This document shows positions 5,752-48,337 of a DNA stretch of 64,000 bases, piece after piece. This stretch comes from Klebsiella phage HMGUkp2: the sequence record PV683292.1; one strand, written 5' to 3'. The notes below the pieces were generated by a model, which made no database searches, had not been told where the DNA came from, and saw only the letters and a program-made list of their open reading frames with translations. Numbering within the stretch: position 1 is the first letter of the stretch; each line of letters opens with the position of its first letter. The position numbers and the translations under genes were made by a program.

Positions 5752-5752
5752 A

Positions 5753-5977: not shown

Positions 5978-5986
5978 GGAACTGGA

Positions 5987-8054: not shown

Positions 8055-8187
8055 AGCCTAAGCCGTTTACAGAAAAGACCTGTCCTAAATGTGGACGGGT
8101 CATTAGAATCAAGTACGGTAGCAACAACTACTTTGTAGAGCATGTTCGCTATTGCCAAGCCAATAAAATTTTATAGCAGGGCCCAAG

Positions 8188-8574: not shown

Positions 8575-8576
8575 GT

Positions 8577-8635
8577 GTTTACAACGGTGTAGGATCATGG
8601 TACTATACTCTTACACAATCTGAGAGGAAAATATT
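8577..8635 (+). promoter_or_regulatory. early promoter-stem-loop cassette e
   Basis: GTTTACAACGGTGTAGGATCATGGTACTATACTCTTACAC ... GAGAGGAAAATATTATG. Confidence 0.55.
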
Positions 8636-9732: not shown

Positions 9733-10028
9733 ATGCTATGAGTAGCCGTCGCCCACGTACTTGGATTGATGATGACGAGGCAGGATTTAAGATTGGCTTT
9801 GCTCTTATTTTTATTAACCTTGGAGCACTAGGCCTTTATAGCCTATTTAGCCCAATTCCGCTTGTATGGGTATTTGTTACAGCGATCAGTATTTTAGTAT
9901 TTCCACTAGTAGCTGCTATTCTTGTACATCTTTTCGCAATTATTCTTGATAAGATATACGCGAAAAAATACAAGAAATATGTTGAAGAACGTAACTTTAT
10001 GAACTGGGTCAAAGGATGTAGAAAATGA
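9729..10028 (+). CDS. membrane protein, paralog B (C-terminal FMNWVKGCRK)
   Basis: 99 aa; same C-terminal motif as upstream neighbour. Confidence 0.5.
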   Translation: MNAMSSRRPRTWIDDDEAGFKIGFALIFINLGALGLYSLFSPIPLVWVFVTAISILVFPLVAAILVHLFAIILDKIYAKKYKKYVEERNFMNWVKGCRK

Positions 10029-10327
10029 GTGCTCCAACTTATTTGATTTCATTTAAAGATGGCCAGGAAACAGGTCGAATCTACTTTAACTGGGGATGGG
10101 TCCCTCCTTCTCACCAGGAAGTCGGGATTAAAATTCTGAAGTTCATTGAACTCGGCATTCAACCTGGCCAATTAGCAAGTGGTAAACTCGGTGAATGGGA
10201 TACCATTAAAGAAAAGTATTATGGTACTCTGAAACGTGAAAAGTACTATGATATGTATGATGTACTGAAGGCTATTCACTATGGCCTTTATGATGGCGAA
10301 TTTAACGTGAAGGATTATTTTGAATGA
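10025..10327 (+). CDS. hypothetical protein
   Basis: 100 aa. Confidence 0.45.
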   Translation: MSAPTYLISFKDGQETGRIYFNWGWVPPSHQEVGIKILKFIELGIQPGQLASGKLGEWDTIKEKYYGTLKREKYYDMYDVLKAIHYGLYDGEFNVKDYFE

Positions 10328-10770
10328 AAGAATTAAGCGCCGGGATTATGTTCTTTACTAAAGACCATCGTCTGTTCATGGCTCGTATGACCGGCATTAA
10401 GCGTAAAGACGGAAGTTCTCGTTGGGACATTCCTAAAGGTCACGTAGAACCAGGCGAATCTCCTAAAGAAGCTGCTATTCGCGAATGCCGGGAAGAAACA
10501 GGATTTACAGACTTTAATCCTGAAGCCCTGTATGACCTAGGCGAGCACGAGTACGCTCGGAATAAGAATATTCATCTGTTTAGTTATATGCGCTTCGTGG
10601 ACATCGAGAGCTTCAGGAATTGCAAATGCACTGCTTACCACACGTTTGAAGATGGGTCTTCTGTTCCTGAAATGGATGCATTCGCATGCATTAAACCTGA
10701 GATGTGGAAACACGTAATGGGGCCGTCTCTTTACCGTATTATGCAGAAGTTGTATCCTAGCGTAGCGTGA
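10324..10770 (+). CDS. nudE: Nudix hydrolase (T4 NudE/e.1-like)
   Basis: Nudix box GHVEPGESPKEAAIRECREETG; position just upstream of lysozyme as in T4. Confidence 0.85.
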   Translation: MKELSAGIMFFTKDHRLFMARMTGIKRKDGSSRWDIPKGHVEPGESPKEAAIRECREETGFTDFNPEALYDLGEHEYARNKNIHLFSYMRFVDIESFRNCKCTAYHTFEDGSSVPEMDAFACIKPEMWKHVMGPSLYRIMQKLYPSVA

Positions 10771-10797
10771 TAAATACTCCTATCAATAGATAGGAGG
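10769..10797 (+). promoter_or_regulatory. late-promoter-like gATAAATA plus RBS-sequestering hairpin of lysozyme gene
   Basis: TGATAAATA(10768-10776) then stem CTCCTATC(10777-10784)/GATAGGAG(10789-10796) whose 3' arm contains the AGGAGG SD; same logic as published T4 e translational control. Confidence 0.5.
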
Positions 10798-10801
10798 TCC
10801 T

Positions 10802-11296
10802 ATGGACATTTTTGACATGCTTCGTATCGATGAAGGGTACGACAACAAAATTTATAAAGACACTGAAGGTTATTACACGATCGGTATTGGCCAGCTCTTA
10901 ACCAAGAGCCCTGATATTAATGTTGCTAAAGCTGAGCTTGATAAACTAATCGGCCGTAAGTGTAATGGCGTTATCACCCGTGCTGAAGCAGAGAAATTGT
11001 TCTTGAATTCAGTAGACAAGGCCACCCGTGGTATCTTAAGCAACCCAGTTCTGAAGCCTGTATATGAATCTCTTGATGCTGTACGTAAAGCGGCATTAAT
11101 TAATATGGTCTTCCAAATGGGTGTTACTGGCGTCGCAGGGTTCACTAATTCTTTGCGTATGCTTAAAGAGAAACGTTGGGACGATGCAGCAGTTAATTTA
11201 GCCAAATCCCGATGGTATAATCAGACTCCTAACAGAGCAAAACGCGTTATCGCAACATTTAAAACAGGAACTTGGAAAGCATATGAAAACCTATAA
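10802..11296 (+). CDS. e: lysozyme (T4 endolysin e)
   Basis: 164 aa; [33 protein letters not shown] nearly identical to T4 lysozyme N-terminus. Confidence 0.95.
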
Positions 11297-11585
11297 AGAA
11301 TTTATCACCGAAGCGCGAGTAAGTGCGGGTAAATTAGAAGCCGCCGTAAATAAAAAGGCCCATTCATTCCATGATTTGCCCGATAAAGACCGTAAGAAAC
11401 TTGTAAGCCTTTATATTGACAAAGAGCGTATTCTCGCTCTCCCTGGTGCTAATGAAGGTAAACAGGCCAAGCCTTTGAATTCTGTCGAAAAGAAAATTGA
11501 TAACTTTGCTTCTAAGTTCGGTATGTCTATGGATGACCTTCAGCAAGCGGCTATCGAAGCAGCTAAAGCAATTAAAGGTAAATAA
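11283..11585 (+). CDS. internal protein (IP) with capsid-targeting leader [11 protein letters not shown]
   Basis: N-terminal CTS typical of T4 IPI/II/III (cleaved after L/IxE). Confidence 0.6.
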
Positions 11586-11643
11586 CAATTTACTTTTACG
11601 ATCGCTGTGATATAGTAGCCTTACAAACTTAATGGAGGCTACT

Positions 11644-12051
11644 ATGACACGTATTAACTTAACTCTTGTTTCTAAACTCGCTGATCAACACCTGATGGCT
11701 GAGTATCGTGAACTGCCACGCATCTTCGGTGCTGTTCGTGATCGTCTGGCTAAAGGACAAGGCTTCAGCGATATTCCTAAAGACTTCCGCCTCGGCGCAG
11801 GTCATGTTAAGTTCTTCTACGATAAAATTGGCTTTTTGTTCTTGCGGCAAAATGCTATTATTGAGGAACTTTTAAAGCGTGGGTTCTAGATTCAAAATAC
11901 CCATGTTGACGTATCGGATATCCCGCTATGTCTAATGAATGATTTTACTCCATCTGAAGCTGACATCGCTTTAAGTCAGGCTCGTTTGGATGAAAAAATT
12001 GCACAAAGGCCTCAGTGGTATAAACATTATGGTAAGGCTATTTACAACTAA
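11644..12051 (+). pseudogene. denV: endonuclease V (denV, pyrimidine-dimer glycosylase) interrupted by in-frame TAG at 11887..11889
   Basis: [30 protein letters not shown] ... [17 protein letters not shown]...[27 protein letters not shown] colinear with T4 DenV across the amber codon, same frame. Confidence 0.8.
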
Positions 12052-12066
12052 GATAAACTTTGATAG

Positions 12067-12092
12067 AATGCTTCTATCAACTTAAAGGATAT
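12067..12092 (+). promoter_or_regulatory. possible MotA-type middle promoter upstream of IP gene
   Basis: aaTGCTTcta then ~12 nt then TATAAA; shared motif aggatataaaatgaaaac also at 12830. Confidence 0.25.
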
Positions 12093-12095
12093 AAA

Positions 12096-12671
12096 ATGAA
12101 AACATATAAAGAATTTATCGCTGAAGCTTCTGCAGGAAAGGTCAATGGCATTAATAAAGATGAGTGGACCTACCGAGGAAACGGCTTTGACCCTAAAACA
12201 GCTCCTATTGAACGATACCTAGCTACAAAGGCTTCTGACTTTAAAAGCTTTGCTTGGGAAGGACTTCGCTGGCGTAACGATCTAAATATTGAAGCTGACG
12301 GACTTAAATTTGCCCATATTCAAGATATTGTTGCCAGTAACTTGGACGCAGCTTTTGTTAAAGCCGATGCAGACCTTCGTCGCTGGAATTTAAAACTGTT
12401 CTCCAAACAGAAAGGCCCGGTGTTTGTGCCTAAAGCTGGTAAATGGGTTATTGACAATAAATTGGCTAAGGCCGTCAACTTCGCCGGTCTTGAATTCGCC
12501 AAGCACAAATCAGCATGGAAAGGTCTTGATGCAATGGCTTTCCGTAAAGAATTCGCCGAGGTTATGGCTAAAGGTGGATTTAAGGCAGATCTAGATACCA
12601 CTAAAGGTACGTTTAAAGACGCTAATATTCAGTACGCCTATGCCGTTGCTAATGCAGCCCGTAATTCCTAA
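12096..12671 (+). CDS. internal protein (IP) with leader [11 protein letters not shown]
   Basis: 191 aa; CTS at N-terminus. Confidence 0.6.
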   Translation: MKTYKEFIAEASAGKVNGINKDEWTYRGNGFDPKTAPIERYLATKASDFKSFAWEGLRWRNDLNIEADGLKFAHIQDIVASNLDAAFVKADADLRRWNLKLFSKQKGPVFVPKAGKWVIDNKLAKAVNFAGLEFAKHKSAWKGLDAMAFRKEFAEVMAKGGFKADLDTTKGTFKDANIQYAYAVANAARNS

Positions 12672-12848
12672 TAAAGCCGAACACGACCTCTCCTCATGAA
12701 CGTCGAGTCCTCTGAGTGAAGTAGCTTTCCCTACCTGTAATAAGGTCGAGCGCAATGCGGTAAGGGGTTTACATAGTGTGTCGATGGATTAAACATGTGC
12801 CAAGGAATGGCCCCATTTAATTTAAATCTTACCATCCTAGGATATAAA

Positions 12849-13163
12849 ATGAAAACTTATAAAGAATTTATCACTGAAGCAAAAGCCCAAAAAGAGCCAA
12901 AGGTATTCCAGATCTGTACACAAGGACATTTGGATAAAGAATTCGTCGATGCTATTGTGTCAAATCTTCGTAAGGAAGGCGTGCAAGTAGATTCAGTTGA
13001 ATGGACCAAAGGCAGTGATAATTTTATTATTACTGTATCTAAAGGTTCTTTGGCTAAAATTAAAAAGTCTTGGGGTGTAATGCGTGCTTATGATCTAAGC
13101 CATGACGGCCCTCAAGCCAAAGTACGAATGAACACCCTTAAAGGCGGGCGAGAATACGTTTAA
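12849..13163 (+). CDS. internal protein (IP) with leader [11 protein letters not shown]
   Basis: 104 aa; CTS. Confidence 0.6.
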   Translation: MKTYKEFITEAKAQKEPKVFQICTQGHLDKEFVDAIVSNLRKEGVQVDSVEWTKGSDNFIITVSKGSLAKIKKSWGVMRAYDLSHDGPQAKVRMNTLKGGREYV

Positions 13164-13240
13164 GTATTATCGTCTAACTTATTAGAAATACTATATGGAC
13201 CACCTAGAGCCAAGGACTGGCCCACAACTTTGGAAATAAT

Positions 13241-13756
13241 ATGAAATACTTAACAGCTCAATATCTATCTCTGATGCATGCTTTTGCAGACCATGCAATC
13301 AGTCGTTTAGATAACCCAGAAAATTCGTGGCAGTACCCTATTGCCATGCTTCAAGAATATGGAACACTACGTCTTGATGGCGGCCGTCAAACCGGTAAAA
13401 CTGAAGCAGTCTCTCAATTTGCTGCAGACTGGCTCTCAGAAGGTAATTCTGTTATTGTCATTGCAAACAAAAGCGAATACGCCCGAGATACTTGCGACCG
13501 TATTAAACGTCGTTGGAAAGTTTTAGAAAGCTTCGATAAAGAAAATGGCATACTAATGCATGATACTGTGCGCAGTTTCCTAGGCGGAAAAGATAAGTTC
13601 CGAGGTGTTTCGCTTAAGCGAACTTTGTTTATAGTTGAAGAACCTATTCGTATCCCAGAGATGTACAAGTTCTATGAAGCCTGGGACGATCTCAAGGCAT
13701 GTTACTCTACAAATAAGCCTAAGTTACCTTTATTTTTCGTTTTGGGGATTCAGTAA
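13241..13756 (+). CDS. P-loop (Walker A GGRQTGKT) protein, hypothetical
   Basis: 171 aa. Confidence 0.4.
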   Translation: MKYLTAQYLSLMHAFADHAISRLDNPENSWQYPIAMLQEYGTLRLDGGRQTGKTEAVSQFAADWLSEGNSVIVIANKSEYARDTCDRIKRRWKVLESFDKENGILMHDTVRSFLGGKDKFRGVSLKRTLFIVEEPIRIPEMYKFYEAWDDLKACYSTNKPKLPLFFVLGIQ

Positions 13757-13992
13757 TGGTTCGTTATATGTTTATGGATGGCCCTTTTAAACAGTCTGTT
13801 ATTCAAACAGAAGCTACTATTGAAGAGCTAAATTCTAAGCCAGATATTGAAATCATATTTGTTACTGGGCCACTTTGTGGCCTGGTATCACGCAGTCTGA
13901 TTTGCTATGACCGAAAACTTATTCGAGCCGTCGAATTGTTTAAAGAACCCATCAAATTAGATATTTCTATCCGCTATACAACCACAGGTTAG
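13756..13992 (+). CDS. hypothetical protein
   Basis: 78 aa. Confidence 0.35.
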   Translation: MVRYMFMDGPFKQSVIQTEATIEELNSKPDIEIIFVTGPLCGLVSRSLICYDRKLIRAVELFKEPIKLDISIRYTTTG

Positions 13993-13993
13993 C

Positions 13994-14224
13994 ATGGCCC
14001 AGGTTATTATTAAAGGTTCAGATAAGGCTATTAAAGCCTTTTGTGATTGGTTCAGTAATAGCGGTGAGCAAGGGCTGATGGAAGCCTGGGCTAGCGACTG
14101 GAACCCAGAAACTATGAAGTATGAAGAAGCAACTTCATACCTTGGTACTCGCGGCTACTCTACAGAAATCGAGTTAGTCGAATACGACAAAGAAACAGAC
14201 GAGGAAATTCCTTATGGCCATTGA
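13994..14224 (+). CDS. hypothetical protein
   Basis: 76 aa. Confidence 0.35.
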   Translation: MAQVIIKGSDKAIKAFCDWFSNSGEQGLMEAWASDWNPETMKYEEATSYLGTRGYSTEIELVEYDKETDEEIPYGH

Positions 14225-14480
14225 AGACATCAAAGGTTACAAACCGCATACTGATGAAAAGATTAATCGTGTTAACGCTATCAAAGATGCCGAGGTCCGT
14301 CTTGGGTTGATTTTCTCGGCCATCGAAGACGAGCTGCGTGAACACGTCCCAGACCAAAGCGATGAAGATTTTAATGCCGATATTCAAGCATTAAATGCTA
14401 TTGTGCTCGCTAAAGATCGCCTTAAAGAAGCTTCTATGTGGGCCTGCCGAGCGGTGTTCCGGCCTGAAGAAAAGTACTAG
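14214..14480 (+). CDS. hypothetical protein
   Basis: 88 aa. Confidence 0.4.
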   Translation: MAIEDIKGYKPHTDEKINRVNAIKDAEVRLGLIFSAIEDELREHVPDQSDEDFNADIQALNAIVLAKDRLKEASMWACRAVFRPEEKY

Positions 14481-14539
14481 TTTACAAGTGTGTAGGAGTA
14501 TGGTATAGTACTTCTACACCAAAATGAGAGGAAATTAAA
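14480..14539 (+). promoter_or_regulatory. early promoter-stem-loop cassette f
   Basis: TAGTTTACAAGTGTGTAGGAGTATGGTATAGTACTTCTACAC. Confidence 0.55.
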
Positions 14540-14998
14540 ATGACTAACATCGATCCAAGCGTTTTCATTCGCCGTAATAAGCTCCGCCGTGTCTTTGAAA
14601 CTACTTTCAAAGATATCAATTCTTCCGTGAAGTCCGCCGCTATTAAGGCCGGAGTTCAACCCTTCTTTATTAAATACTCTAATCATCTGTTGGACCGTGC
14701 TATCCAACGCGATATCGATGAAGAGTATGTATTCGCCCTCTTCAAAAAGATTCATCTTCATGTCGAAGAGATCTCAGAATTCTTGAAATTACCGCCATTA
14801 CCAATCGATACTGCTGATATAGATCCTAATGTAGTATACCGTCCTCAGCGCCTTGAAGTCACTGATGGAACTTTATGGTTGGGTATGACTGTGGATAACC
14901 ATATCCCAGGCCGGTGGTATTCCTTGAAATGCCGTATGGCTTTCGTTAACAATAAACGTTTAAAAGGTAAAATCAGCACATACGTTATTAATCTTTAA
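14540..14998 (+). CDS. regB: RegB sequence-specific endoribonuclease
   Basis: 152 aa; FIRRNKLRR.FE..F..IN...K.AA.KAGV..F.KYS.HLLDRAIQR.IDE.YVF.LF.KI matches T4 RegB. Confidence 0.8.
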   Translation: MTNIDPSVFIRRNKLRRVFETTFKDINSSVKSAAIKAGVQPFFIKYSNHLLDRAIQRDIDEEYVFALFKKIHLHVEEISEFLKLPPLPIDTADIDPNVVYRPQRLEVTDGTLWLGMTVDNHIPGRWYSLKCRMAFVNNKRLKGKISTYVINL

Positions 14999-15007
14999 GA
15001 GGAAAAC

Positions 15008-15547
15008 ATGAAAAAAGCGATACTAGCACTTACGATGCTTTCTGCATCTGTTTTTAGTGCTGAGCACCACTTCAGTAGTGTCCAACTCGATAATTTGCAT
15101 TACGCATATCAATTCGGGGAGCAATTCACTAAGGACGGTAAGTATAAAACTCACGAAACCCGTGATAAGAAAGGACTTGGATACATTATGGCTGCTATAG
15201 CTTGGCAAGAGTCAAGTGCGGGCGTTAATACCGGCAAGAACAAAAAGAAGCACCATGCTTATGGGGTATTTCAAAATTATTTGCCTACGGTCCGTAATAG
15301 AGCTGCACAAAATAACTGGAATCTTTCTGATACAGAAATCAAAAGAATGCTATCAGATCGTAAGCATTCGGCCCGCTGGGCGTATATTGAGCTGAGCTAT
15401 TGGTTAAATATACATAACGGGGACATGCGTAAAGCTATCTCTAGTTATAATGCGGGTTGGAATGTAAAGGCAGGTAATAAGTACGCCTCCCAAGTTATAG
15501 AAAAGGCGAATTATCTTAAATCGCATGAGATTCTAATTAGTGGATAA
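15008..15547 (+). CDS. secreted lytic-transglycosylase (SLT)-like protein
   Basis: Signal peptide; AIAWQESSAG...YGVFQ resembles SLT catalytic motif. Confidence 0.45.
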   Translation: MKKAILALTMLSASVFSAEHHFSSVQLDNLHYAYQFGEQFTKDGKYKTHETRDKKGLGYIMAAIAWQESSAGVNTGKNKKKHHAYGVFQNYLPTVRNRAAQNNWNLSDTEIKRMLSDRKHSARWAYIELSYWLNIHNGDMRKAISSYNAGWNVKAGNKYASQVIEKANYLKSHEILISG

Positions 15548-15550
15548 GAT

Positions 15551-15901
15551 ATGAAAAAATTATCTTTAGCTCTTGGGTTATTTTTATGTTTGGGAGTCAA
15601 TGCGGCACAGAGTACCGATAAATCCAGAATTCTTGAATACGCACATAGGACAGCTAAAGACTACTGTTCGCCAAAAAACGTTCAATGTATAACAGAGTTC
15701 TCTAATCAAGTCATTATGGCCTTTAAAGACGGTCAAATGGATTCGAGATCTCGGTTCCGTGAAAATTCTCTTTCAGATCGTTATGAAAATAGGTTGCTTA
15801 CCACAGAGTGTATTCCTTCTGATGATAAGTATAAAGAAATATGTGAATCTATGGTCGACCGTTTAGTCGACTCATATAATAGAGGTTTAAACTCTAAATG
15901 A
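15551..15901 (+). CDS. secreted/periplasmic protein
   Basis: Signal peptide MKKLSLALGLFLCLGVNAAQ; 116 aa; four Cys. Confidence 0.45.
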   Translation: MKKLSLALGLFLCLGVNAAQSTDKSRILEYAHRTAKDYCSPKNVQCITEFSNQVIMAFKDGQMDSRSRFRENSLSDRYENRLLTTECIPSDDKYKEICESMVDRLVDSYNRGLNSK

Positions 15902-16362
15902 TAACCCAATACATCTCCGGCAATATCGTAGAACTGTTTAAAACCGGGCATCATATCGCGCATGGCTGTAATTGCCATCACCAGATGGGCGCTGGTATAG
16001 CTGGACAGCTTGCTAAAGCCTTTCCACAAGTATTAGAAGCCGATATCCGCGAAACTAAACTTGGCGATCGAGAAAAGCTTGGTTTTATTACTATAGCAAC
16101 AAATAGCCAGCCCGAAGGAACGGCGTATTGCTTCAACTTGTATACTCAATATACTCCTGGTCGGAATCTAGATTACGGTGCCTTGTTGAATGCCTTCAGA
16201 CGTCTTGATATGATATCTGAAAATCAGATCACTCCTCTAACAGTTTATATTCCTCGGATTGGAGCTGGTATCGCCGGCGGTGATTGGGCTAAAATAGAAA
16301 CGATTATTAATATGTTCACTGATCATACTAATATCATCGTAGTGGATTGGGACGGTAAATAA
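15898..16362 (+). CDS. macro-domain protein (ADP-ribose binding/hydrolase)
   Basis: GNIVELFKTGHHIAHGCNCHHQMGAGIAGQLAKAFP and later RIGAGIAGG fit macro domain core. Confidence 0.55.
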   Translation: MITQYISGNIVELFKTGHHIAHGCNCHHQMGAGIAGQLAKAFPQVLEADIRETKLGDREKLGFITIATNSQPEGTAYCFNLYTQYTPGRNLDYGALLNAFRRLDMISENQITPLTVYIPRIGAGIAGGDWAKIETIINMFTDHTNIIVVDWDGK

Positions 16363-16943
16363 TGGCAAGCTTAATTTTTCATTTTGCAACAATGAACGCT
16401 GGAAAATCGGCACACTTATTAATATCCGCTCATAACTACAAAGAACGTGGTATGGGTACATTGATTCTTAAGCCTTCTGTTGACGGCCGGGATTCATCTA
16501 CTGAAGTTGTATCTAGACTTGGGCTTAGACAAGAAGCTAATATCATTACTCCTGATATGGATATATTCGAATTCTTTAAATGGGCCCAGACACAGCGTGA
16601 TATCCACTGTGTATTTGTCGATGAAGCCCAGTTCTTAACTCGTCACCATGTGATAGAACTGTGTAAAATTGTCGATCAATACAACGTTCCTGTGATGGCA
16701 TATGGGCTCCGTACAGATTTCCAAGGTATCTTATTTGAAGGTTCAGAAACATTATTAGCAGTTGCCGATAAGTTAGTAGAACTGAAAGGCGTCTGCCATT
16801 GCGGTCGTAAAGCAACAATGGTCGCGCGTATTGATGAAGAAGGTAATGCTGTACTAGAAGGTGATAAGATTGAATTAGGCGGCGAAGACCGGTATGTTTC
16901 TCTTTGTCGTAAACATTGGTTCGAATTAGTGACTGGAAAATAG
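16362..16943 (+). CDS. tk: thymidine kinase
   Basis: 193 aa; FATMNAGKSAHLL Walker A, VDEAQF, C-terminal CHCGRKATMVAR...LCRKHW zinc site. Confidence 0.85.
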   Translation: MASLIFHFATMNAGKSAHLLISAHNYKERGMGTLILKPSVDGRDSSTEVVSRLGLRQEANIITPDMDIFEFFKWAQTQRDIHCVFVDEAQFLTRHHVIELCKIVDQYNVPVMAYGLRTDFQGILFEGSETLLAVADKLVELKGVCHCGRKATMVARIDEEGNAVLEGDKIELGGEDRYVSLCRKHWFELVTGK

Positions 16944-16944
16944 T

Positions 16945-17076
16945 ATGAAATGGGTGATATGCTATCGTTGTTTACACGTCTATGACTATAATAAGGCTCC
17001 TAAGACTGCGACTAAGCGTCTTAAAAATAAAGAGCCAGAATGTCCTAAATGTAAATGCAAGGTAATTTTTAGCTGA
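16945..17076 (+). CDS. small zinc-ribbon protein (CxxC...CxxC), 43 aa
   Basis: ATG overlaps tk stop region; [12 protein letters not shown]...[14 protein letters not shown]. Confidence 0.35.
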
Positions 17077-17110
17077 TAAATACGTTTGTAAACTAACTCA
17101 AGAGGTGTAT

Positions 17111-42634: not shown

Positions 42635-42725
42635 TATAGATTAGGCCAGGCCCTAAAGTGATTCTAGGGCCTCGCTTTAATTATTATGTAGTATAATGGC
42701 TCCGTCAACAATTGAGGAACACAAA

Positions 42726-44390
42726 ATGCGTAAAGTAGTTATCTTAGGTGCCGGTCTTGGGTCTCGCTTATATCCAATTACCAATGAGATCCCTAAAGTG
42801 CTTGTAAACTATAAACAGCACACAGTTTTTAAACACCTGGTTGATTTGTATAAAAATCAATCAGATGAAATTATTCTAGTAATTCATAGTAAATTTGATG
42901 GGCTAGTTCGTGGATACATGAAGTCGGTTGGAATAAGCGATATCACCATTCGCCATGTTGATGTATCCATAGGTTCTGCACACGCTATTGATTGTATTGC
43001 TGATGATATCGTAGGACACAACGTACTATTCAACTGGTGTGACATTATTCCGGAAGGCCACAAAGTAGAATGGGGTAACGATTATTGCTATACCTTTGGT
43101 ACAGATTGCCGTTTCACTTTTGAAGAACCGTATTTTCGTGAAATTGGGACAGGTGGCGGTGTGGTTGGCCTGTATCAAGTAGCTAAATGGCCCGGGTTCT
43201 GTTCTTTTGAAGGCAACTACGGTGAAGACCTTGCCGACAATTTAGATTCTATGGTTTATATGACCGAGCGTAAGCTAGAGGCAGTCATTGACATCGGCGA
43301 TAAGATTAAATTGGCCGAAGCACATAAAACCTCTGAGATTAATCGTGACTTTAACAAGCTCAAATTTACAGATCAACACGCTATTAAAATCCCGACTAAT
43401 GAGTATGGTAAAGAAATTCAAGCTAAAGAGCTTAAATGGTATAATTCTGTACAATCGAAATTTATTCCTACTATTGTAGATTTCACACCAGGCGAATTTA
43501 TTAAAATGGAACGAATCTACGGTAAAACCATGGCAGATGCGTACCCTCTGATGACCAAAGATACCCAAGTATTAATGGTATATAAAGTAATCAGTGCTCT
43601 GAAATCATTAGGCGGCGATATCTATATTCCTACCGACGAACAGTGGTACGCGGACGTTAAGAAAGAAGTTCTTGATAAGGTATTAATCCGCAACGATTCT
43701 ATTAAAGAACTTTTAGAAGGGTTTGCACCTGAAGGCATTACCCATGTTAATGATTTTAAAGTAGGTAAGCCAGAAAAACTGCTGGAACACGCATTAGAAA
43801 TTCTATCCGAGCATAAAGAACCGTACCAGTTGATTCATGGGGACCCGCATTATTCTAACATTATGTTTACTGATTCGGGTGATATTAAAATTATAGACCC
43901 GCGTGGATATTTTGGTAATAGCCAATACGGCCCTACCATTTATGATGAAGCTAAAGTGCTTTATTCTATTGATGGGTACGATAAATTTAATGCAGACCCA
44001 CTATGGGGCGGTATTTCTCGGAATGGCACTAGGCTGTTTGTCGAGATTGAGAAAGTAATGCCGTTAGATGATATTCCTATGTGTACCTTTAAGCATAAAC
44101 TGTGGATTGCTGTTATTTGGATGGCTTTAGCAGGCTATTTCAAGAACAATCCGCTTAAGGCTATTGGCGCTTATTATCATGGTCTATATCAGCTGAGTGT
44201 GCTGCTTAAAAGTCAGCCTCGTAAACGCAAACTTATCGATGGCACAGAAGTAACTGAAGTTAAAGACCCTATCACAGCTTCTATTATTACCAGATGCCCT
44301 GATAAATGGGAACTGCTTGATAAAGAAACTGGTGTAAAATATAAACCAATTGGTGGTAACATCACCCATCAGTGGGAACGAATTGGGTAA
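42726..44390 (+). CDS. bifunctional nucleotidyltransferase / APH-like (anomeric sugar or small-alcohol) kinase
   Basis: N-term LGAGLGSRLYPIT (GxGxRL NTase motif, GlmU/RmlA/LicC-like); C-term HGDPHYSNIMF + IIDPRGYFG (Brenner HxDxxxxN and DxG motifs of APH/choline-kinase/AmgK fold); GAGGAA RBS. Confidence 0.65.
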   Translation: MRKVVILGAGLGSRLYPITNEIPKVLVNYKQHTVFKHLVDLYKNQSDEIILVIHSKFDGLVRGYMKSVGISDITIRHVDVSIGSAHAIDCIADDIVGHNVLFNWCDIIPEGHKVEWGNDYCYTFGTDCRFTFEEPYFREIGTGGGVVGLYQVAKWPGFCSFEGNYGEDLADNLDSMVYMTERKLEAVIDIGDKIKLAEAHKTSEINRDFNKLKFTDQHAIKIPTNEYGKEIQAKELKWYNSVQSKFIPTIVDFTPGEFIKMERIYGKTMADAYPLMTKDTQVLMVYKVISALKSLGGDIYIPTDEQWYADVKKEVLDKVLIRNDSIKELLEGFAPEGITHVNDFKVGKPEKLLEHALEILSEHKEPYQLIHGDPHYSNIMFTDSGDIKIIDPRGYFGNSQYGPTIYDEAKVLYSIDGYDKFNADPLWGGISRNGTRLFVEIEKVMPLDDIPMCTFKHKLWIAVIWMALAGYFKNNPLKAIGAYYHGLYQLSVLLKSQPRKRKLIDGTEVTEVKDPITASIITRCPDKWELLDKETGVKYKPIGGNITHQWERIG

Positions 44391-44453: not shown

Positions 44454-44813
44454 ATGAATCTCTGTTTCGACATCGACAACACAATCACGATATGGAATAG
44501 CAACCGTGATTATCTGAATTTTGAGCCGGACCCAGAAATGGTGGCCATAATTAACAAGCTCTATGATGAAGGCCACGAGATAACCTTGTATACGGCCCGT
44601 GGTATGACCTCTTGTGGCCCTGGTCGAATTCTGACTGAAGTGGTCCCGGCTCTTGTAAAGAACCTTGAAAAAATTGGACTGAAGTATCATAACCTGCTTA
44701 CACATAAACCAAGTTATGATTTTATTATTGACGACCGGGCAATTCGTCCTGATCACTTTAAGAAAATGATTCAAGATGGCACATTTGAAACATACAAGGC
44801 GTATCATCCATGA
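44454..44813 (+). CDS. HAD-superfamily phosphatase
   Basis: FDIDNTIT (DxDxT motif I), later LYTARG and DDRA. Confidence 0.6.
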   Translation: MNLCFDIDNTITIWNSNRDYLNFEPDPEMVAIINKLYDEGHEITLYTARGMTSCGPGRILTEVVPALVKNLEKIGLKYHNLLTHKPSYDFIIDDRAIRPDHFKKMIQDGTFETYKAYHP

Positions 44814-45373
44814 GTCCTAAAATTATTGTTGTAGACGGCCCTGATAATTCAGGGAAGTCTACTTTAATTAACAAGTTACTTAATAATACTAATTTTAAGC
44901 TTATTGATTTTCCTAAGAAAATTAACGGCAAGTGTATTTCTATAGGCACCGATAACGATAAGGCTTTAGTAGAGACCTTATATAAATTTTTAGACCCTAA
45001 TTTCGTCTACATCTTAGATCGCGGTTATCCTAGTAATATTGTTTACTCTGGATTTCTTCGTGGCGAAATGGACCCGTTCGAAGAACTTAAAGACTGGGAA
45101 GAATTCAAAGAAGAGTTCAATGTCATCGAGGTTATTTTAACTCGCAATCCGTTGGACGAGGACTTTGAAGACGATCTTATTAAGCTGACTAAGGATGAGT
45201 TCAATATGACTATTCGTCAGTATGAAACCCACTTTAAGAACGTGTTCAAGATTCTTAATCATGACGGTAAGAATAATCTGCTTAACGTAGATACAGTAGA
45301 ATTAAAACGTTTGAACGGCTATATTAATTATGAGGTTAGTAAACGAAACGCATTACAAAGGCCTCTACATTAA
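44810..45373 (+). CDS. P-loop kinase, thymidylate-kinase/dNK-like
   Basis: IVVDGPDNSGKSTL Walker A; LDRGYPSNIVYSG (DR motif); ATGA-coupled to HAD gene. Confidence 0.55.
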   Translation: MSPKIIVVDGPDNSGKSTLINKLLNNTNFKLIDFPKKINGKCISIGTDNDKALVETLYKFLDPNFVYILDRGYPSNIVYSGFLRGEMDPFEELKDWEEFKEEFNVIEVILTRNPLDEDFEDDLIKLTKDEFNMTIRQYETHFKNVFKILNHDGKNNLLNVDTVELKRLNGYINYEVSKRNALQRPLH

Positions 45374-45523: not shown

Positions 45524-46684
45524 ATGAATATTTTTAAAGTAGGAACAAATTTCGATTTAGCTTTGTTGGATAAAATTGTAGAACTCAGCAAAAAATATCC
45601 GAACAGCCTTATTAACGAGGTATACGGCTCTACTAGAGAAATGGCCTTCATCGCAGCAAGGCCTGATTTCAGATTACCTGATGTCGGGAAGTCTTTTCTT
45701 GAAGAGTATGTCAAGCGCTGTAATGAACTAGGAATCTGTTTTAATTATACTTTTAACACAATAAATCCAGGTTCAAAACGAGAACTTGATGAATGGAAAA
45801 AGAAAGCTATTCAAGAGTACGTTCAGTATCTTTGGTCTATAGGTGTTTGGCGTATCACTATAGCTAACCCAGTTGTAATGGAAATTGTTCGTGAAGTCAA
45901 TAAAGAGATTGAGATCGAAGTTTCAACTATACTTCATATTGATGCCGTGACTCAAATCAAATATCTTCACGACCAATACAACATTAAGAAAGTGTGTTGT
46001 GGAATTCATAAGAACCGGTCTGTTAACTTCTTGAAGCAGGCCGCGGCGTTTTGTAATGAAAACGGAATTATTTTTGAAGTCCTTGTTAACGAGTTCTGTT
46101 CTAACGCCGGAAAAGGTTATACAACTCACTGCAGTTATCGTGACTCTTGTTATATTTTCCATAGCACAGATGTTACAGCTGACGATGCTAAATCCTTAAA
46201 TGGCTATCCGATGCAACACTGCATTAAAGCTCGAGACACTGATCCGTTTAACTGGTTACGAACTCGCTTTGTTCGCCCGCAAGACCTGCATCTGTACCGT
46301 GACATCGGTATCACACAGTTCAAAGTTTCTGGACGTACTGGCTCAACTGAGTACATTATGAAGGTCCTTGAGGCGTATTCTTCAGAGAAGTTTGAAGGTA
46401 ATCTTCTTGAGCTGTGGAAACCTCTCGAAACCATCTACAATGGCGAATCAGATGCTAACTATAGCCATACCGTGAACATCGAAACATCGCTGTTAGACGG
46501 CTTTCTTGAAAAACGTTGGTTCAAACATCCTACGTTTGATTGCGCTAATGAAGTCTGCGGCAGTACTTGTACTTACTGTGAGCGTTACTATAAGCGTCAG
46601 TTATCTAAAAATGACCGCCCGCTGAATTCTATTCAGATCGTAGACGTTACCAGTTCAGACGACGAACTTCGTTACCCAGAATAA
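45524..46684 (+). CDS. peptidase-U32-family Fe-S protein (UbiU/UbiV/RlhA/TrhP-like putative hydroxylase)
   Basis: 386 aa; NEVYGS, ICFNYTFNT, FEVLVNEFCSNAGKGYTTHCSY and FKVSGRTGSTEYIMKV align to the U32 core (DAVYIG / AINT / FGSLC..EGRCYLSSY / VKIEGR.RSP.Y); Cys cluster CGSTCTYC at C-terminus. Confidence 0.55.
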   Translation: MNIFKVGTNFDLALLDKIVELSKKYPNSLINEVYGSTREMAFIAARPDFRLPDVGKSFLEEYVKRCNELGICFNYTFNTINPGSKRELDEWKKKAIQEYVQYLWSIGVWRITIANPVVMEIVREVNKEIEIEVSTILHIDAVTQIKYLHDQYNIKKVCCGIHKNRSVNFLKQAAAFCNENGIIFEVLVNEFCSNAGKGYTTHCSYRDSCYIFHSTDVTADDAKSLNGYPMQHCIKARDTDPFNWLRTRFVRPQDLHLYRDIGITQFKVSGRTGSTEYIMKVLEAYSSEKFEGNLLELWKPLETIYNGESDANYSHTVNIETSLLDGFLEKRWFKHPTFDCANEVCGSTCTYCERYYKRQLSKNDRPLNSIQIVDVTSSDDELRYPE

Positions 46685-46686
46685 GC

Positions 46687-46709
46687 AAAGAGGCTTAGGC
46701 CTCTTTTAG
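46687..46709 (+). terminator. intrinsic terminator
   Basis: AGAGGCTTAGGCCTCT + TTTT. Confidence 0.65.
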
Positions 46710-46727
46710 TATATAATAGGATTTTTA

Positions 46728-47441
46728 ATGTCAGAGCACAACAGAATGAAACATATTTCATATCCGTCTTTCCAGACCGCATTCAAAGTACTGAATGAAG
46801 AGATTCTCAACAATCCGCAGTTCGTTATTGATTCTCGTATTGGCCGTTGTAATGAAATCGGTTCTGCTTCAATTGAAGTAACCGATCCGACAACGTTCAA
46901 ATTCACTGATCCTCGTATCAACCGCATTAGTTATGAATATGCCGAAGCCTTCTGGCAATTCATGATTTCTGGTGGTACTGATGCTGCTGAAGCATTTAAG
47001 GAATACCCGAATGTTGCTAAGTTCATTGATAAGCCGAAAAGTGACGTACTGCCTGCAAACTTCAACACTTTCTATGGGCCTCGAATTGCTGCCCAGCTCC
47101 CAGCCTTACTTAAAGAGCTTAAAGAAAAGGCTAACTCGCGACGGGTTGTATTCCAAATTCTTCAAGAGAAAGACCAAGCACTGTTAGATTCAGATGAATC
47201 CCTCGAATACCCGTGCACAGATTCTATAACATACTATATCCGTGAAGGCAAGCTTTATGCCCATACACATATGCGTTCACAGAACTGTGCTGTAGTGATG
47301 CAGCTGGACTTTTATCTGCAAGGCAAGTTAATGCAATACATTGCAGATCAATGTGGTGTACAATTAGGTACGTATTCTCACACTATGGTTTCAGCCCACG
47401 TCTTTGAACGTGATTTTGATTATGTAAGAGGTTTTATCTGA
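46728..47441 (+). CDS. 42: thymidylate-synthase-fold pyrimidine (dCMP?) hydroxymethylase, gp42-like
   Basis: 237 aa; EYPCTDSITYYIREGKLYAHTHMRSQNCAV aligns with gp42 DFMCTNTVQYLIRDKKINAVVNMRSNDVVF (catalytic Cys, RS-x-N/D phosphate site); downstream LDFY Asp at the specificity position. Confidence 0.65.
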   Translation: MSEHNRMKHISYPSFQTAFKVLNEEILNNPQFVIDSRIGRCNEIGSASIEVTDPTTFKFTDPRINRISYEYAEAFWQFMISGGTDAAEAFKEYPNVAKFIDKPKSDVLPANFNTFYGPRIAAQLPALLKELKEKANSRRVVFQILQEKDQALLDSDESLEYPCTDSITYYIREGKLYAHTHMRSQNCAVVMQLDFYLQGKLMQYIADQCGVQLGTYSHTMVSAHVFERDFDYVRGFI

Positions 47442-48337
47442 TGGCTTATTTCCGTGTACCAATCTTTAGTATGCGAAGCTATGAAACTGGTGAATACGCC
47501 GTCCTTAAGGACGGCAACTTCCAGTTACATTTGAATCGTGCTAGTGCTGGTGATATCATCGCGGTTCCACGTAATGCAAGTGATATCGAAGAGTGTAAAG
47601 AACTATTCCCAGAGTTTGAATTTGTCCCTCTTTGGTACAAGGAAAATGCTTATGAAACTCGTAAACATTTCTGGGAAGAAAATCAGTTTATAGTTGATTC
47701 TTTAGTTGATTACTACGACTGCTCTTATCTAGTGACAGATATTACTGGATATCAAGGCAAACACGAGGTATTCTTTGTTTTTAATATAACTAAAGACCCT
47801 GAGAATCCTCGGTATTATATTGACGAGTTTATTGACATTGACGTTGAATCTGTAAACAAGTCTGTAGCAACGTTTGTTCTTAATCATGGCCAGAAAGACG
47901 TTCTCGTAGCGGCAGGTGCAATTCCGGGCCGTATCTTTGTAGATCAACGGGTCATTAAGCCGAGTGTCATGGAACGTTATACGGAAGGCCTGGAACCAAT
48001 CCACCTTGATGGTATTTTTCATCCATTCCGTATCAGCGATCCGTGTTATCGTTTCGACCAAGTTGTCGAATGCGCTATTGCAGCAGATAGCGTCTTGTAT
48101 ATCACAGACCCGAACATGAGTTTCAAACGTGAACTGTATCCTGAAGAAGCAAAGATCCATGTTCTTCGTCTGTCTAAGAAAGAATACTATCAAGTACTAA
48201 TGGGTCGACCGACTATCCAGTACTTTGAAGACCCTGAAAAAGTGTTTCACCCTGGGTTAGCAGAGTTTATCTATTTTAATGCTAAAATAAATTCTCCATA
48301 TAATATTCCTGCTTATAACCATGTGGTAATTAATTAA
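47441..48337 (+). CDS. hypothetical 298-aa protein in beta-glucosyltransferase position, translationally coupled to hydroxymethylase (candidate DNA-modifying transferase)
   Basis: ATGA coupling; no motif I can assign. Confidence 0.45.
   Translation: MAYFRVPIFSMRSYETGEYAVLKDGNFQLHLNRASAGDIIAVPRNASDIEECKELFPEFEFVPLWYKENAYETRKHFWEENQFIVDSLVDYYDCSYLVTDITGYQGKHEVFFVFNITKDPENPRYYIDEFIDIDVESVNKSVATFVLNHGQKDVLVAAGAIPGRIFVDQRVIKPSVMERYTEGLEPIHLDGIFHPFRISDPCYRFDQVVECAIAADSVLYITDPNMSFKRELYPEEAKIHVLRLSKKEYYQVLMGRPTIQYFEDPEKVFHPGLAEFIYFNAKINSPYNIPAYNHVVIN

Follow-up and report, generated by a model that had tools for sequence, protein, structure and literature searches.

Why does a phage carry, among genes for DNA modification, a gene for a protein of the peptidase U32 family? 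The question is raised by Klebsiella phage HMGUkp2 (sequence record PV683292.1), of which a stretch of 64,000 nucleotides, here called the window, was analyzed. HMGUkp2 is a Marfa-like phage, and the U32 protein of the window is the ortholog of RB69 ORF050c (RB69p050; 88.6% identity) and of Marfa gp040. The favored answer, to which a probability of roughly 0.6 is given, is that the protein is a prephenate-dependent, O2-independent C5-hydroxylase of a pyrimidine deoxynucleotide, which works in parallel to a ThyA-type 5-hydroxy-dCMP (5hodCMP) synthase.

An earlier note, made from the sequence of the window, had called this role undescribed for phage DNA. That holds in so far as the gene is without an assigned function in the accessible literature. 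Full-text searches for papers on phage DNA modification that also deal with U32, prephenate or chorismate mutase returned nothing relevant, and the gene is unmentioned in the Thanatos, RB69-2018 and Durham papers. The gene itself is already on record, however, being listed as RB69p050 in Table 1 of PMC13326640, where a U32 fold match is given and a 'sugar or heterocycle reductase' is predicted.

The gene cluster

The neighboring genes confirm that the U32 gene lies within a phage base-modification cluster (Table 1). The roles of the AfhE-like gp52:53 homolog and of the AfhF-like gp51 homolog are taken from PMC13326640, in which RB69 gp46:47 is the predicted first arabinosyltransferase acting on 5-hydroxycytosine (5hoC) in DNA (Table 1 of that paper). 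A promoter scan around the U32 gene gave nothing better than shuffled sequence.

Table 1. Features of the U32 gene and its surroundings, in positions of the window.
Feature	Position	Strand	Evidence
Bifunctional sugar-1-P nucleotidyltransferase / sugar kinase (RB69 gp52:53, AfhE-like), NDP-arabinose synthesis	42696..44390	+	Pfam NTP_transferase and APH; 43% identity to RB69 protein
Small HAD-like phosphatase homolog (RB69 gp51 / AfhF-like), annotated 'phosphoheptose isomerase'	44454..44813	+	phrog_1238; 66% identity to RB69 ORF051c
Thymidylate-kinase-like NMP kinase (RB69 gp45 homolog)	44810..45373	+	phrog_761, E 3.5e-37; P-loop kinase Pfam matches; 38% identity to RB69 ORF045c
U32-family protein, 386 aa	45524..46684	+	ORF; PF01136; PHROG match phrog_5757
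U32 core domain, residues 94-286, within TIM-barrel-like fold	45803..46381	+	
Predicted catalytic/Fe-S motif E190-F-C192 ... C203-x5-C209-Y210 ... H213	46091..46162	+	hhalign; invariant in 108/108 homologs
Family-specific C-terminal Cys cluster C340-x4-C345-x3-C349-x2-C352 (FDCANEVCGSTCTYC)	46541..46579	+	invariant in 108/108 homologs
8-bp, GC-containing hairpin in the 43-nt spacer between U32 gene and ThyA homolog	46687..46706	.	sequence; terminator-like scan
ThyA-superfamily 5-hydroxy-dCMP synthase (O2/flavin-dependent), RB69 gp48 homolog	46728..47441	+	Pfam Thymidylat_synt, 48.7 bits; 79.7% identity to RB69 ORF048c
phrog_3891 protein, RB69 gp46:47 homolog	47441..48337	+	phrog_3891, 515 bits; 67% identity over 179 aa to RB69 ORF047c

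Family, fold and conserved residues

Membership of the U32 family, as first proposed in the earlier note, is borne out by a profile match to Pfam PF01136 (43.6 bits, gathering cutoff 22.4, E 2.8e-11; 42.2 bits for the RB69 ortholog) and by a fold search with an AF2 model, which has the TIM-barrel-like U32 fold of Mk0906 (PDB 5d88). A PDB sequence search returned no match for the protein, so that the fold search alone was informative. In NCBIfam, its sole match is UbiU, at 17.9 bits against an equivalog cutoff of 440, and it matches neither the RlhA nor the TrhP equivalog. Since all equivalog cutoffs are missed, the protein represents a distinct subfamily and is the ortholog of no characterized U32 member. 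The family comprises 484 clusters at 50% identity (E <= 1e-30); the protein belongs to a large, virus-borne subfamily of U32 enzymes, which are predicted to hold iron-sulfur clusters.

The note's view that the characterized relatives are O2-independent hydroxylases also stands: they form the prephenate-dependent group, and the nearest is RlhA. When the family was aligned with RlhA by hhalign, a probability of 85% (E 5.9e-6) was obtained over 206 columns with ~22% identity, and scores for TrhP (probability 19%), UbiU and UbiV were far lower. In this alignment, E190, C203 and C209 pair with RlhA E161, C169 and C176, which are essential residues, as are E162, C170 and C177 in TrhP (PMC6599085). 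The spacing is E-x12-C-x5-C in the phage proteins and E-x7-C-x6-C in the canonical motif. E190, C192, C203, C209, Y210 and H213 are invariant in all 108 U32 homologs compared. Nine cysteines are invariant in total. Two Fe-S ligand positions align with RlhA, and the invariant C158, C192 and C233 are further candidate ligands; the four-Cys motif that binds [4Fe-4S] in UbiU/V is described as shared by most U32 proteins (PMC10990095).

The C-terminal cysteine cluster pointed out in the earlier note is present in the protein and in all 108 homologs compared. It falls outside the region aligned with RlhA, is modeled by AF2 with a pLDDT of 93-96, and may form a second metal or Fe-S site. Its C345-x3-C349-x-Y-C352 spacing prompted a radical SAM reading, which was rejected because no Radical_SAM Pfam match was obtained and the motif lies C-terminal to the barrel. 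The fourth invariant cysteine, C340, four residues upstream of C345, suggests a fully ligated site, unlike the open iron site of radical SAM enzymes.

Database names such as 'peptidase', 'putative protease' and 'collagenase protein' would make the protein a true, collagenase-like peptidase. This can hardly be right: such names have no other basis than what the family was historically called and the transfer of annotations, whereas the characterized U32 members are linked to hydroxylation rather than proteolysis, and nine invariant cysteines in a context of nucleotide metabolism are unlike a protease.

The neighboring hydroxylase and the modified base

The ThyA homolog of the window had been taken for a pyrimidine hydroxymethylase, which was wrong. 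Its sequence is 79.7% identical to that of RB69 gp48, which was experimentally shown to be an O2/flavin-dependent 5-hydroxy-dCMP synthase (PMC13326640), and the active-site segment LEYPC...HMRSQNCAVVMQLDFY is the same in both. The L143E, D169N, N177D signature described in PMC13326640 is found in the homolog of the window by ungapped reading, at a place where MAFFT puts a 2-residue gap. Labeling with 18O2 demonstrated that the oxygen introduced by the ThyA-type synthase comes from O2 (PMC13326640). According to that paper, the modified base in these phages is arabinosyl-5-hydroxycytosine, with arabinose attached directly to 5-hydroxycytosine, and the RB69 nucleosides were identified by NMR and MS as the mono- and di-arabinosyl forms.

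These structures bear on the further proposal of the earlier note, namely that the U32 protein adds an oxidation or hydroxylation to an already modified base or its substituent. The U32 gene does adjoin that of a base-modifying enzyme, and its family is tied to hydroxylation; yet this neighbor is itself a hydroxylase, not a hydroxymethylase, and the RB69 nucleosides leave no extra oxygen to explain (PMC13326640). Since the structure, as published, can be reached without any additional oxidation, the proposal appears very improbable; that the same 5-hydroxy base is made by a parallel, O2-independent route is the likelier reading. As the neighboring hydroxylase uses O2, such a route would fill a real gap.

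In the parallel route, the U32 enzyme would carry out an O2-free hydroxylation at C5 of a pyrimidine deoxynucleotide, the most likely reaction being that of dCMP to 5-hydroxy-dCMP. Prephenate would supply the oxygen atom, in line with the proposals made for UbiU/V, RlhA and TrhP. After phosphorylation by the adjoining NMP kinase, the modified nucleotide would enter the DNA through the phage polymerase and there receive its arabinose. With this enzyme alongside the ThyA-type synthase, which requires O2 and flavin, modified DNA might still be made in anoxic habitats.

In vitro hydroxylation has been shown for no U32 protein (PMC10990095), so that even the chemistry of the family rests on genetics and isotope labeling, and the pyrimidine substrates known so far are RNA polymers rather than mononucleotides (PMC10990095, PMC6599085). 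It is conceivable, albeit unlikely, that the phage enzyme acts after replication on cytosine (or uracil) in the DNA polymer, for instance by turning residual C into 5hoC for glycosylation. All characterized pyrimidine-directed U32 enzymes use polymers, RlhA is the closest paralog, and the glycosyltransferases of the pathway act on DNA (PMC13326640). However, the phage protein ends without the extended C-terminal parts by which RlhA reaches 653 aa and TrhP 453 aa, and its most constant neighbors, namely NMP kinases, NTP pyrophosphatases and dCMP deaminase, point to the metabolism of mononucleotides.

Genomic linkage to prephenate supply

Prephenate is the demonstrated oxygen donor for UbiU/V (PMC10990095) and is genetically required by RlhA and TrhP (PMC6599085). 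In relatives of the window, a type II chorismate mutase gene (Pfam CM_2 above threshold) lies directly 3' of the U32 gene, and in PWKp16 the stop codon of the one and the start codon of the other overlap in GTGA. Chorismate mutase is encoded in 51 phage records, and in 14 of the 18 Straboviridae loci examined. Outside the Straboviridae, it adjoins the U32 gene in 13 of 39 loci; chorismate mutase and/or DAHP synthase are found in 16 of them, in at least six distinct architectures. At two loci (L005 and L006), a DAHPS-CM fusion adjoins the U32 gene, and all remaining enzymes of the shikimate pathway are encoded within 8 kb. The DAHPS-like neighbors are of the DAHP type, not the KDO8P type. Such linkage, recurring in many independent lineages of phages, is strong though indirect support for a dependence of the U32 enzyme on prephenate.

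No chorismate mutase gene was found in the window, in Marfa or in RB69. In the window, the slot that it occupies in most relatives is filled by the hairpin listed in Table 1. RB69 ORF049c, which lies in the same slot, was rejected as a chorismate mutase (no Pfam match; hhalign probability 0.1%). For want of this gene, the U32 enzyme of the window would have to rely on prephenate from the host.

U32 loci outside the Straboviridae

A ThyA-type hydroxylase is encoded within +/-10 kb of the U32 gene at none of the 39 non-Straboviridae loci, and none of the 22 non-Straboviridae U32 contigs of IMG/VR is among the 29 contigs that carry such a hydroxylase in a peptide-pattern scan; these absences refer only to the flanks and the scan. 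The scan of viral contigs was confined to hydroxylase-type sequences; a broader scan gave canonical thymidylate synthases, and at one locus (L025) a canonical ThyA lies 4.5 kb from the U32 gene. The phrog_3891 glycosyltransferase, homologous to RB69 gp46:47, is present at 23/39 loci and usually adjoins U32. Other companions are TMK-like NMP kinases, NTP pyrophosphatases of the dUTPase_2/MazG type, dCMP deaminase and replication genes, and an NMP-kinase fusion was found two genes upstream of a U32 gene. Five loci (L027, L029, L036, L042 and L051) combine U32 with kinase, glycosyltransferase and polymerase and are without AfhE-like or HAD sugar genes. In a second type of context, a protein of ~270 aa beside U32 matched an 8-oxoguanine glycosylase only marginally (E 0.015) and no PHROG, and was given no assignment.

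An RNA-directed role, in which the U32 protein would tune translation during infection by forming ho5U34 or ho5C in host or phage tRNA or rRNA, is decidedly unlikely in view of this synteny with genes of DNA modification and replication, which is strict and deeply conserved across unrelated phage groups. Such a role is the one demonstrated for the nearest characterized relatives, and T4-like phages encode tRNAs, several of which appear in the Marfa annotation. Nevertheless, no consistent link to tRNA genes emerged at the loci examined, and the phage protein has neither RNA-binding extensions nor, as noted above, an NCBIfam match to RlhA or TrhP.

Distribution across phages and hosts

The U32 gene was found in 221 phage records, with Enterobacterales or Shewanella as hosts among the matches listed, and the ThyA-type enzyme in 377, including 57 of Acinetobacter and 22 of Rhizobium phages. 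The Acinetobacter and Rhizobium phages have kept the rest of the cluster and are missing the U32 gene. Acinetobacter phage DLP3, which has no U32 gene, nonetheless produces tri-arabinosyl-5hoC (PMC13326640), and the same cluster without U32 occurs in Ac42 and in the E. coli Dhakavirus WG01. Within the Straboviridae, the U32 gene is accessory and conditional. Dhakaviruses infect E. coli and yet have no U32 gene, so that the oxygen physiology of the host does not fully predict its presence.

The named genomes with U32 relatives belong mostly to obligate anaerobes (Erysipelotrichales, Gastranaerophilaceae, Romboutsia, Clostridium and an isolate of Phocaeicola faecalis), a pattern that is confounded by phylogeny; the assignment of phage contigs to MAG bins is also unreliable. 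Together with the absence of U32 from the Acinetobacter and Rhizobium phages, this occurrence hints, by distribution only, at an O2-independent activity. Anaerobic ribonucleotide reductase genes are absent from the Marfa annotation between gp55 and endonuclease VII, and an argument for anoxia from ribonucleotide reductase was dropped.

The distribution also bears on the label given in Table 1 of PMC13326640, by which the U32 protein would be an enzyme of the sugar pathway that makes or tailors the NDP-arabinose donor. The gene does lie between those for arabinose activation and base modification, and many enzymes of sugar phosphates have a TIM-barrel fold. This assignment is nonetheless quite unlikely: the sugar genes occur without U32 in DLP3, Ac42 and WG01, and DLP3 attaches three arabinoses; many non-Straboviridae U32 loci are without AfhE-like or HAD sugar genes; and the linked chorismate mutase and DAHP synthase, which is DAHP-type rather than KDO8P-type, have no role in pentose chemistry.

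The preferred hydroxylase reading can be widened, at about even odds, to a widespread and unrecognized class of phage DNA hypermodification whose base-modifying step is carried out by U32 proteins as prephenate-dependent, O2-independent deoxynucleotide 5-hydroxylases. In phages of anaerobic hosts they would take the place of the ThyA-type enzyme, and where the host is a facultative anaerobe they would serve as a backup to it; they would be fed by chorismate mutase, DAHP synthase or the whole shikimate pathway, and the new hydroxyl would afterwards be linked to a sugar or, in certain lineages, to a methyl group.

Implications

If true, prephenate-dependent hydroxylation, so far found on RNA and in ubiquinone synthesis, would extend to DNA precursors and to viruses, and a soluble small-molecule substrate would become available for the U32 family, which has no in vitro assay yet. 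It would be explained how phages that depend on an O2-requiring hydroxylase replicate in the anoxic gut, and why phage genomes contain puzzling genes for chorismate mutase, DAHP synthase and the shikimate pathway. For phage therapy, oxygen-dependent differences would be predicted between phages that are otherwise similar, U32 being present in Mosigvirus and Marfavirus and not in Dhakavirus. Hundreds of uncultured phages, such as gut jumbo phages and a Phocaeicola element, would be likely carriers of 5-oxy-pyrimidine DNA.

Comparison with known systems

The only solved U32 structure, that of Mk0906, belongs to an archaeal protein of 247 aa with 12% identity to the phage protein, and it is without the C-terminal 100 residues of the latter. 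Among the E. coli paralogs, RlhA (YdcP), the 5-hydroxycytidine synthase for C2501 of 23S rRNA, is the best profile match; it shares the U32 core and the essential Glu/Cys/Cys, and its chemistry is a prephenate-dependent C5-hydroxylation of cytosine (PMC5727448, PMC6599085). RlhA, a protein of 653 aa, has extensive C-terminal regions and acts on rRNA in the ribosome, whereas the phage protein has 386 aa, the altered motif spacing, the extra invariant C192, a unique C-terminal four-Cys cluster and a DNA-precursor context. UbiU-UbiV are likewise U32 proteins, in which four cysteines hold a 4Fe-4S cluster; 18O-shikimate labeling proved prephenate to be the donor, and their role is the adaptation to anaerobiosis (PMC10990095). 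In contrast to the phage enzyme, they form a heterodimer with UbiT as accessory protein and act on the aromatic ring of a lipid, and the similarity is barely detectable.

A precedent for the proposed pairing of a U32 and a ThyA-type enzyme is provided by TrhP and TrhO of E. coli, two non-homologous enzymes, one of the U32 family, prephenate-dependent and O2-independent, the other O2-using, that make one product, ho5U34 in tRNA (PMC6599085). There the substrate is a tRNA uridine and the O2-using partner is of the rhodanese family, and here the partner is a flavin-using ThyA homolog. The ThyA-type 5hodCMP synthases (RB69 gp48, DLP3 gp80 and the HY126 homolog) share with the U32 protein the proposed product and the cluster, their gene lying directly downstream of U32. 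They differ from it in their thymidylate synthase superfamily fold, their flavin, their O2-derived oxygen and their occurrence in Acinetobacter and Rhizobium phages without U32. Finally, the non-Straboviridae loci, with NTP pyrophosphatase, NMP kinase and DNA glycosyltransferase near replication genes, resemble the T4 gp42 module of dCTPase, gp42, dNMP kinase and glucosyltransferases (PMC13326640). Enzyme family, cofactors and predicted product (5-hydroxy as against 5-hydroxymethyl) are different, and the place of the base-modifying enzyme is taken by the U32 gene.

Identity and kinship of the U32 protein

The gene under study encodes a member of the Peptidase U32 family, as the earlier note had proposed: residues 94-286 match PF01136 with 43.6 bits (Pfam cutoff 22.4), and phrog_5757 is matched over the full length (866 bits). 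In Klebsiella phage Marfa, a T4-like Marfavirus from swine faeces whose DNA is 96.5% identical to the window, the gene is gp040, the ortholog of RB69 ORF050c (88.6% amino-acid identity). In all, 221 phage records contain orthologs with 77-99% identity, and the hosts among the records listed are all Enterobacterales or Shewanella. Homologs on uncultured phage contigs beyond the T4-like phages share about 45-58% identity, and when 1.84 billion representatives were searched with a profile, the family comprised 484 clusters (E <= 1e-30), nearly all of about 350-390 aa. The gene order in the window is DNA polymerase, AfhE-like sugar nucleotidyltransferase-kinase, small HAD-like phosphatase, TMK-like NMP kinase, U32, ThyA homolog, phrog_3891 protein (homolog of RB69 gp46:47) and UvsX. 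Coordinates are collected in the table, where L-numbers denote individual phage or contig loci.

Characterised U32 proteins are associated with O2-independent hydroxylation. RlhA produces ho5C2501 in 23S rRNA, TrhP produces ho5U34 in tRNA and UbiU/V hydroxylate ubiquinone precursors; all of them genetically require prephenate, which was identified as the oxygen donor of UbiU/V by 18O labelling. [4Fe-4S] clusters matter functionally in UbiU/V and are believed to be widespread in the family, for which there is still no in vitro assay (PMC10990095, PMC6599085). A protease role of the phage protein has a negligible probability.

Among the four E. coli paralogs, the cytosine-5 hydroxylase RlhA is the nearest (hhalign probability 85%, E 5.9e-6, 206 columns), the profile matches of TrhP, UbiU and UbiV being much weaker. 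In the alignment to RlhA, E190, C203 and C209 coincide with three essential residues of RlhA and TrhP; together with Y210 and H213 they are invariant across 108 homologs. None of the characterised subfamilies is orthologous to the phage protein (best NCBIfam match UbiU, 17.9 bits vs a cutoff of 440), whose motif spacing is altered compared to the characterised members. Nine cysteines are invariant (C158, C192, C203, C209, C233, C340, C345, C349 and C352). A feature of its own is a C-terminal extension of about 100 residues ending in C-x4-C-x3-C-x2-C, possibly a second metal or Fe-S site; C340 and the CGSTCTYC motif would probably hold either zinc or a second, fully ligated cluster. The Pfam Radical_SAM profile finds no match in the protein.

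Coordinates of the features discussed, in the window or in the locus named
Feature	Sequence	Coordinates	Strand	Remarks
U32 ORF	Window	45524-46684	+	386 aa, intact; holds every sequence block quoted in the earlier note
CGSTCTYC	Window	46556-46579		C-terminal, residues 345-352; radical-SAM-style C-x3-C-x-aromatic-C pattern; preceded by the fourth invariant Cys, C340
U32-ThyA spacer	Window	46685-46727		43 nt with hairpin, in the chorismate mutase slot
RB69 ORF049c	L003	7158-7397		79 aa, phrog_8601; in the chorismate mutase slot of RB69, unrelated to chorismate mutase
Kinase-ThyA homolog junction	Escherichia phage WG01 (Dhakavirus), L052	4468-5699		Gene order of the window; TMK-like kinase stop overlaps ThyA-homolog start
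Complete shikimate pathway around U32	L005 and L006 (ENA contigs scaffold_349, k141_715825)	7068-17107
BrxA-like-match protein	L005	11264-11779		Homologs in L025, L030, L032, L034-37, L048, L054, L059; several unrelated phage lineages
dCMP deaminase directly upstream of U32	L004; L049	7447-9086; 8279-9858		Stop/start overlap in L004
U32 with sugar-related neighbours	L050	7777-16179		Flanked by phrog_3891-type protein, Gly_transf_sug glycosyltransferase, TAGT-like (Tet-associated) glycosyltransferase, UDP-galactopyranose mutase
Second conserved U32 context	L056, L060, L061, L062 (Phocaeicola faecalis FXJYN30E22 scaffold17)	3044-7125 (L062)
Two U32 paralogs of the phage subfamily	L056	8001-9098; 13227-14360		Both on one Bacillota-binned contig, separated by 5 kb

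The neighbouring ThyA homolog and the published record

In the DNA of RB69 and Acinetobacter phage DLP3, arabinose is joined directly to 5-hydroxycytosine (5hoC) (Lee et al., NAR 2026, PMC13326640). The ThyA homologs RB69 gp48 and DLP3 gp80 produce 5-hydroxy-dCMP; the enzyme binds flavin and takes its oxygen from O2, as shown by 18O2 labelling, and the in vitro confirmation of the synthase is attributed there to He et al. 2026 (PMC13326640). The ThyA homolog of the window is 79.7% identical to RB69 gp48 with the same active-site segment and is therefore an O2-dependent 5-hydroxylase, not the pyrimidine hydroxymethylase that the earlier note had supposed. The further oxidation or hydroxylation of the modified base or its substituent, which that note had assigned to the U32 protein, is highly improbable, as the solved nucleoside structures hold no product needing it.

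The U32 gene itself appears in one table row as RB69p050, a 'sugar or heterocycle reductase' with a 5d88 fold match and no experiment, and two RNA hydroxylation pathways are discussed without a tie to it (PMC13326640). A second paper loosely lumps the region as 'putative sugar-modifying genes'. The fold and the family are already known, and the gene itself has appeared in print. Full-text searches of the openly accessible literature found no paper tying a U32 protein, prephenate or chorismate mutase to phage DNA modification.

Prephenate supply genes beside U32

Prephenate is the product of chorismate mutase (CM). An 81-aa gene of Klebsiella phage PWKp16 (Marfavirus F48) begins at the U32 stop codon (GTGA overlap) and encodes a full-length type II CM (Pfam CM_2, 39.5 bits vs a cutoff of 27). 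Its homologs occur in 51 phage records, comprising Klebsiella, Enterobacter, Edwardsiella, Pectobacterium, Yersinia, Serratia, Erwinia, Kosakonia, Escherichia, Morganella, Providencia and Shewanella phages, and in every record listed the match lies between the U32 gene and the ThyA homolog. Of the 18 Straboviridae loci examined, 14 have CM. Marfa and the window are without it, and the 64-kb window holds no homolog of either CM or RB69 ORF049c; the latter was ruled out as a CM by Pfam and hhalign.

A prephenate-supply gene also stands beside U32 in 16 of the 39 loci outside Straboviridae. A fusion of DAHP synthase (DAHPS) and CM adjoins U32 in L005/L006 and L055 and lies two genes off in L030; a stand-alone CM is found directly 3' of U32 in a group of jumbo phages of about 200-290 kb and about 3.3 kb downstream in L054; DAHPS lies nearby in L022, L048 and L063. 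Each of these assignments was confirmed with Pfam; the stand-alone synthases belong to the DAHP type, not the KDO8P type. In L005/L006, the DAHPS-CM fusion is accompanied by all remaining shikimate-pathway enzymes (DHQ synthase, shikimate kinase, a DHQase II-EPSP synthase fusion, chorismate synthase and shikimate dehydrogenase) less than 8 kb from U32. A virus-encoded entire route to prephenate is unusual in itself. The L005/L006 contig is phage-like, with numerous small ORFs and an HNH gene.

The link to chorismate argues against the published label of a sugar-pathway role. So do phages that arabinosylate without U32, as well as loci that have U32 and no sugar-activation genes, and we consider this role quite improbable.

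DNA-modification modules outside Straboviridae

For the 39 loci, ORFs were called, neighbours clustered and clusters annotated. The most frequent partner is phrog_3891 (23 of 39 loci, mostly directly adjacent), a family that includes the 298-aa window protein and RB69 gp46:47, predicted to be the first glycosyltransferase acting on 5hoC in DNA. Other recurrent neighbours are TMK-like NMP kinases, dUTPase_2/MazG-type NTP pyrophosphatases, dUTPase/DCD, AfhE-like sugar-activating enzymes, HAD phosphatases, additional glycosyltransferases and one UDP-galactopyranose mutase, next to replication genes (DNA polymerase III alpha, primase, RecA, SSB). Such synteny is left unexplained by an RNA-directed role, which appears very doubtful. 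The UDP-galactopyranose mutase locus, L050, recalls Rhizobium phage RL38J1, whose table entry lists the same enzyme (PMC13326640). A protein of about 170-210 aa, whose BrxA-like Pfam match is weak (21 bits, under the threshold), turns up repeatedly at a distance of a few kb or less from U32.

A ThyA-type hydroxylase was found within +/-10 kb of U32 in none of the 39 loci, the ThyA of L025 being a canonical thymidylate synthase only (243 bits). Likewise, none of the 22 U32-bearing IMG/VR contigs outside Straboviridae is among the 29 contigs with a hydroxylase-type ThyA homolog.

dCMP deaminase recurs near U32 and is translationally coupled to it once. In the lineage concerned (L004, a 466-kb contig, and L049, a related 60-kb contig), dUMP might take the place of dCMP as the substrate. 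Neither locus has a phrog_3891 glycosyltransferase; TMK, UDG, Pol III alpha and SSB genes lie nearby.

The second conserved context consists of a fusion of a guanylate-kinase-like NMP kinase and a SAM methyltransferase, a protein of about 270 aa with only a marginal match to 8-oxoguanine glycosylase, and U32, in this order. In Phocaeicola, the locus borders on bacterial genes and has a phage GP88 gene next to it. This arrangement suggests a pathway from 5-hydroxy to 5-methoxy pyrimidine nucleotides, paralleling the conversion of ho5U to mo5U in tRNA. The two paralogs of L056 could form a heteromeric pair like UbiU/UbiV.

Distribution and dispensability

The DLP3 cluster, which lacks U32, yields tri-arabinosyl 5hoC (PMC13326640), and Acinetobacter phage Ac42 and E. 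coli Dhakavirus WG01 carry the same clusters minus U32, WG01 having neither U32 nor CM between kinase and ThyA homolog. U32 and, where present, CM thus make up an accessory cassette placed immediately 5' of the O2-dependent hydroxylase gene; it is dispensable for arabinose activation and for modification in air.

Phage records with the ThyA-type hydroxylase number 377, among them 57 from Acinetobacter and 22 from Rhizobium, which are aerobic hosts; U32 occurs in 221 records, and those listed include none from either genus. Relatives in the named genomes come from contigs attributed to Erysipelotrichales, Gastranaerophilaceae, Romboutsia, Clostridium and other MAGs, and from the Phocaeicola faecalis isolate. 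This distribution is consistent with a function that needs no O2. As evidence it is weak: it is confounded by phylogeny, the Dhakaviruses depart from it, and phage DNA is not reliably binned into MAGs. The Marfa annotation (L047, Marfa 30000-69100, about window 1-39000) lists NrdH- and NrdC-like glutaredoxins. Between gp55 and endonuclease VII, the place of nrdD/nrdG in T4, it contains no such anaerobic ribonucleotide reductase genes.

In RB69 and Ac42, an arabinose-5-phosphate isomerase (SIS domain) adjoins the DNA polymerase gene. The window has no room for it at 42635-42695 and no tblastn match in its whole 64 kb; arabinose-5-phosphate may come from host KdsD/GutQ, or the isomerase may be encoded outside the window.

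Proposed function

We propose, with a probability of about 0.6, that the U32 protein is a prephenate-dependent pyrimidine 5-hydroxylase serving DNA modification; dCMP as the specific substrate and an anaerobic back-up role are held with less confidence. The Fe-S enzyme would convert a pyrimidine deoxynucleotide, most likely dCMP and possibly dUMP in the dCMP-deaminase-coupled lineages, into its 5-hydroxy form. Prephenate would donate the oxygen, releasing phenylpyruvate and CO2 after the scheme proposed for UbiU/V, and electrons would exit via the cluster(s) to an acceptor. The product would be phosphorylated by the adjacent NMP kinase and built in by the polymerase, before the phrog_3891 transferase begins glycosylation on DNA. 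In HMGUkp2, the host would supply prephenate. Post-replicative hydroxylation of DNA, the leading alternative, differs solely in the substrate and is regarded as unlikely.

Compared to the openly accessible literature, the functional reading of the U32 protein, the CM/DAHPS/shikimate linkage and the large virus-borne U32 subfamily within DNA-hypermodification modules lacking a ThyA-type enzyme are new. If true, the U32 hydroxylases would gain both a substrate class and a biological setting that are new to them. A conceivable rationale is that the switch from hydroxymethylcytosine, made O2-free, to hydroxycytosine tied phage DNA synthesis to O2, and that the U32 cassette lifts this dependence. 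In HMGUkp2, U32 would duplicate the O2-dependent ThyA-type enzyme, as TrhP and TrhO provide duplicate routes to tRNA ho5U in E. coli (PMC6599085). The modules outside Straboviridae resemble the T4 hmC pathway in their architecture of pyrophosphatase, base-modifying enzyme, NMP kinase and DNA glycosyltransferase, with the U32 gene occupying the position of the base-modifying enzyme.
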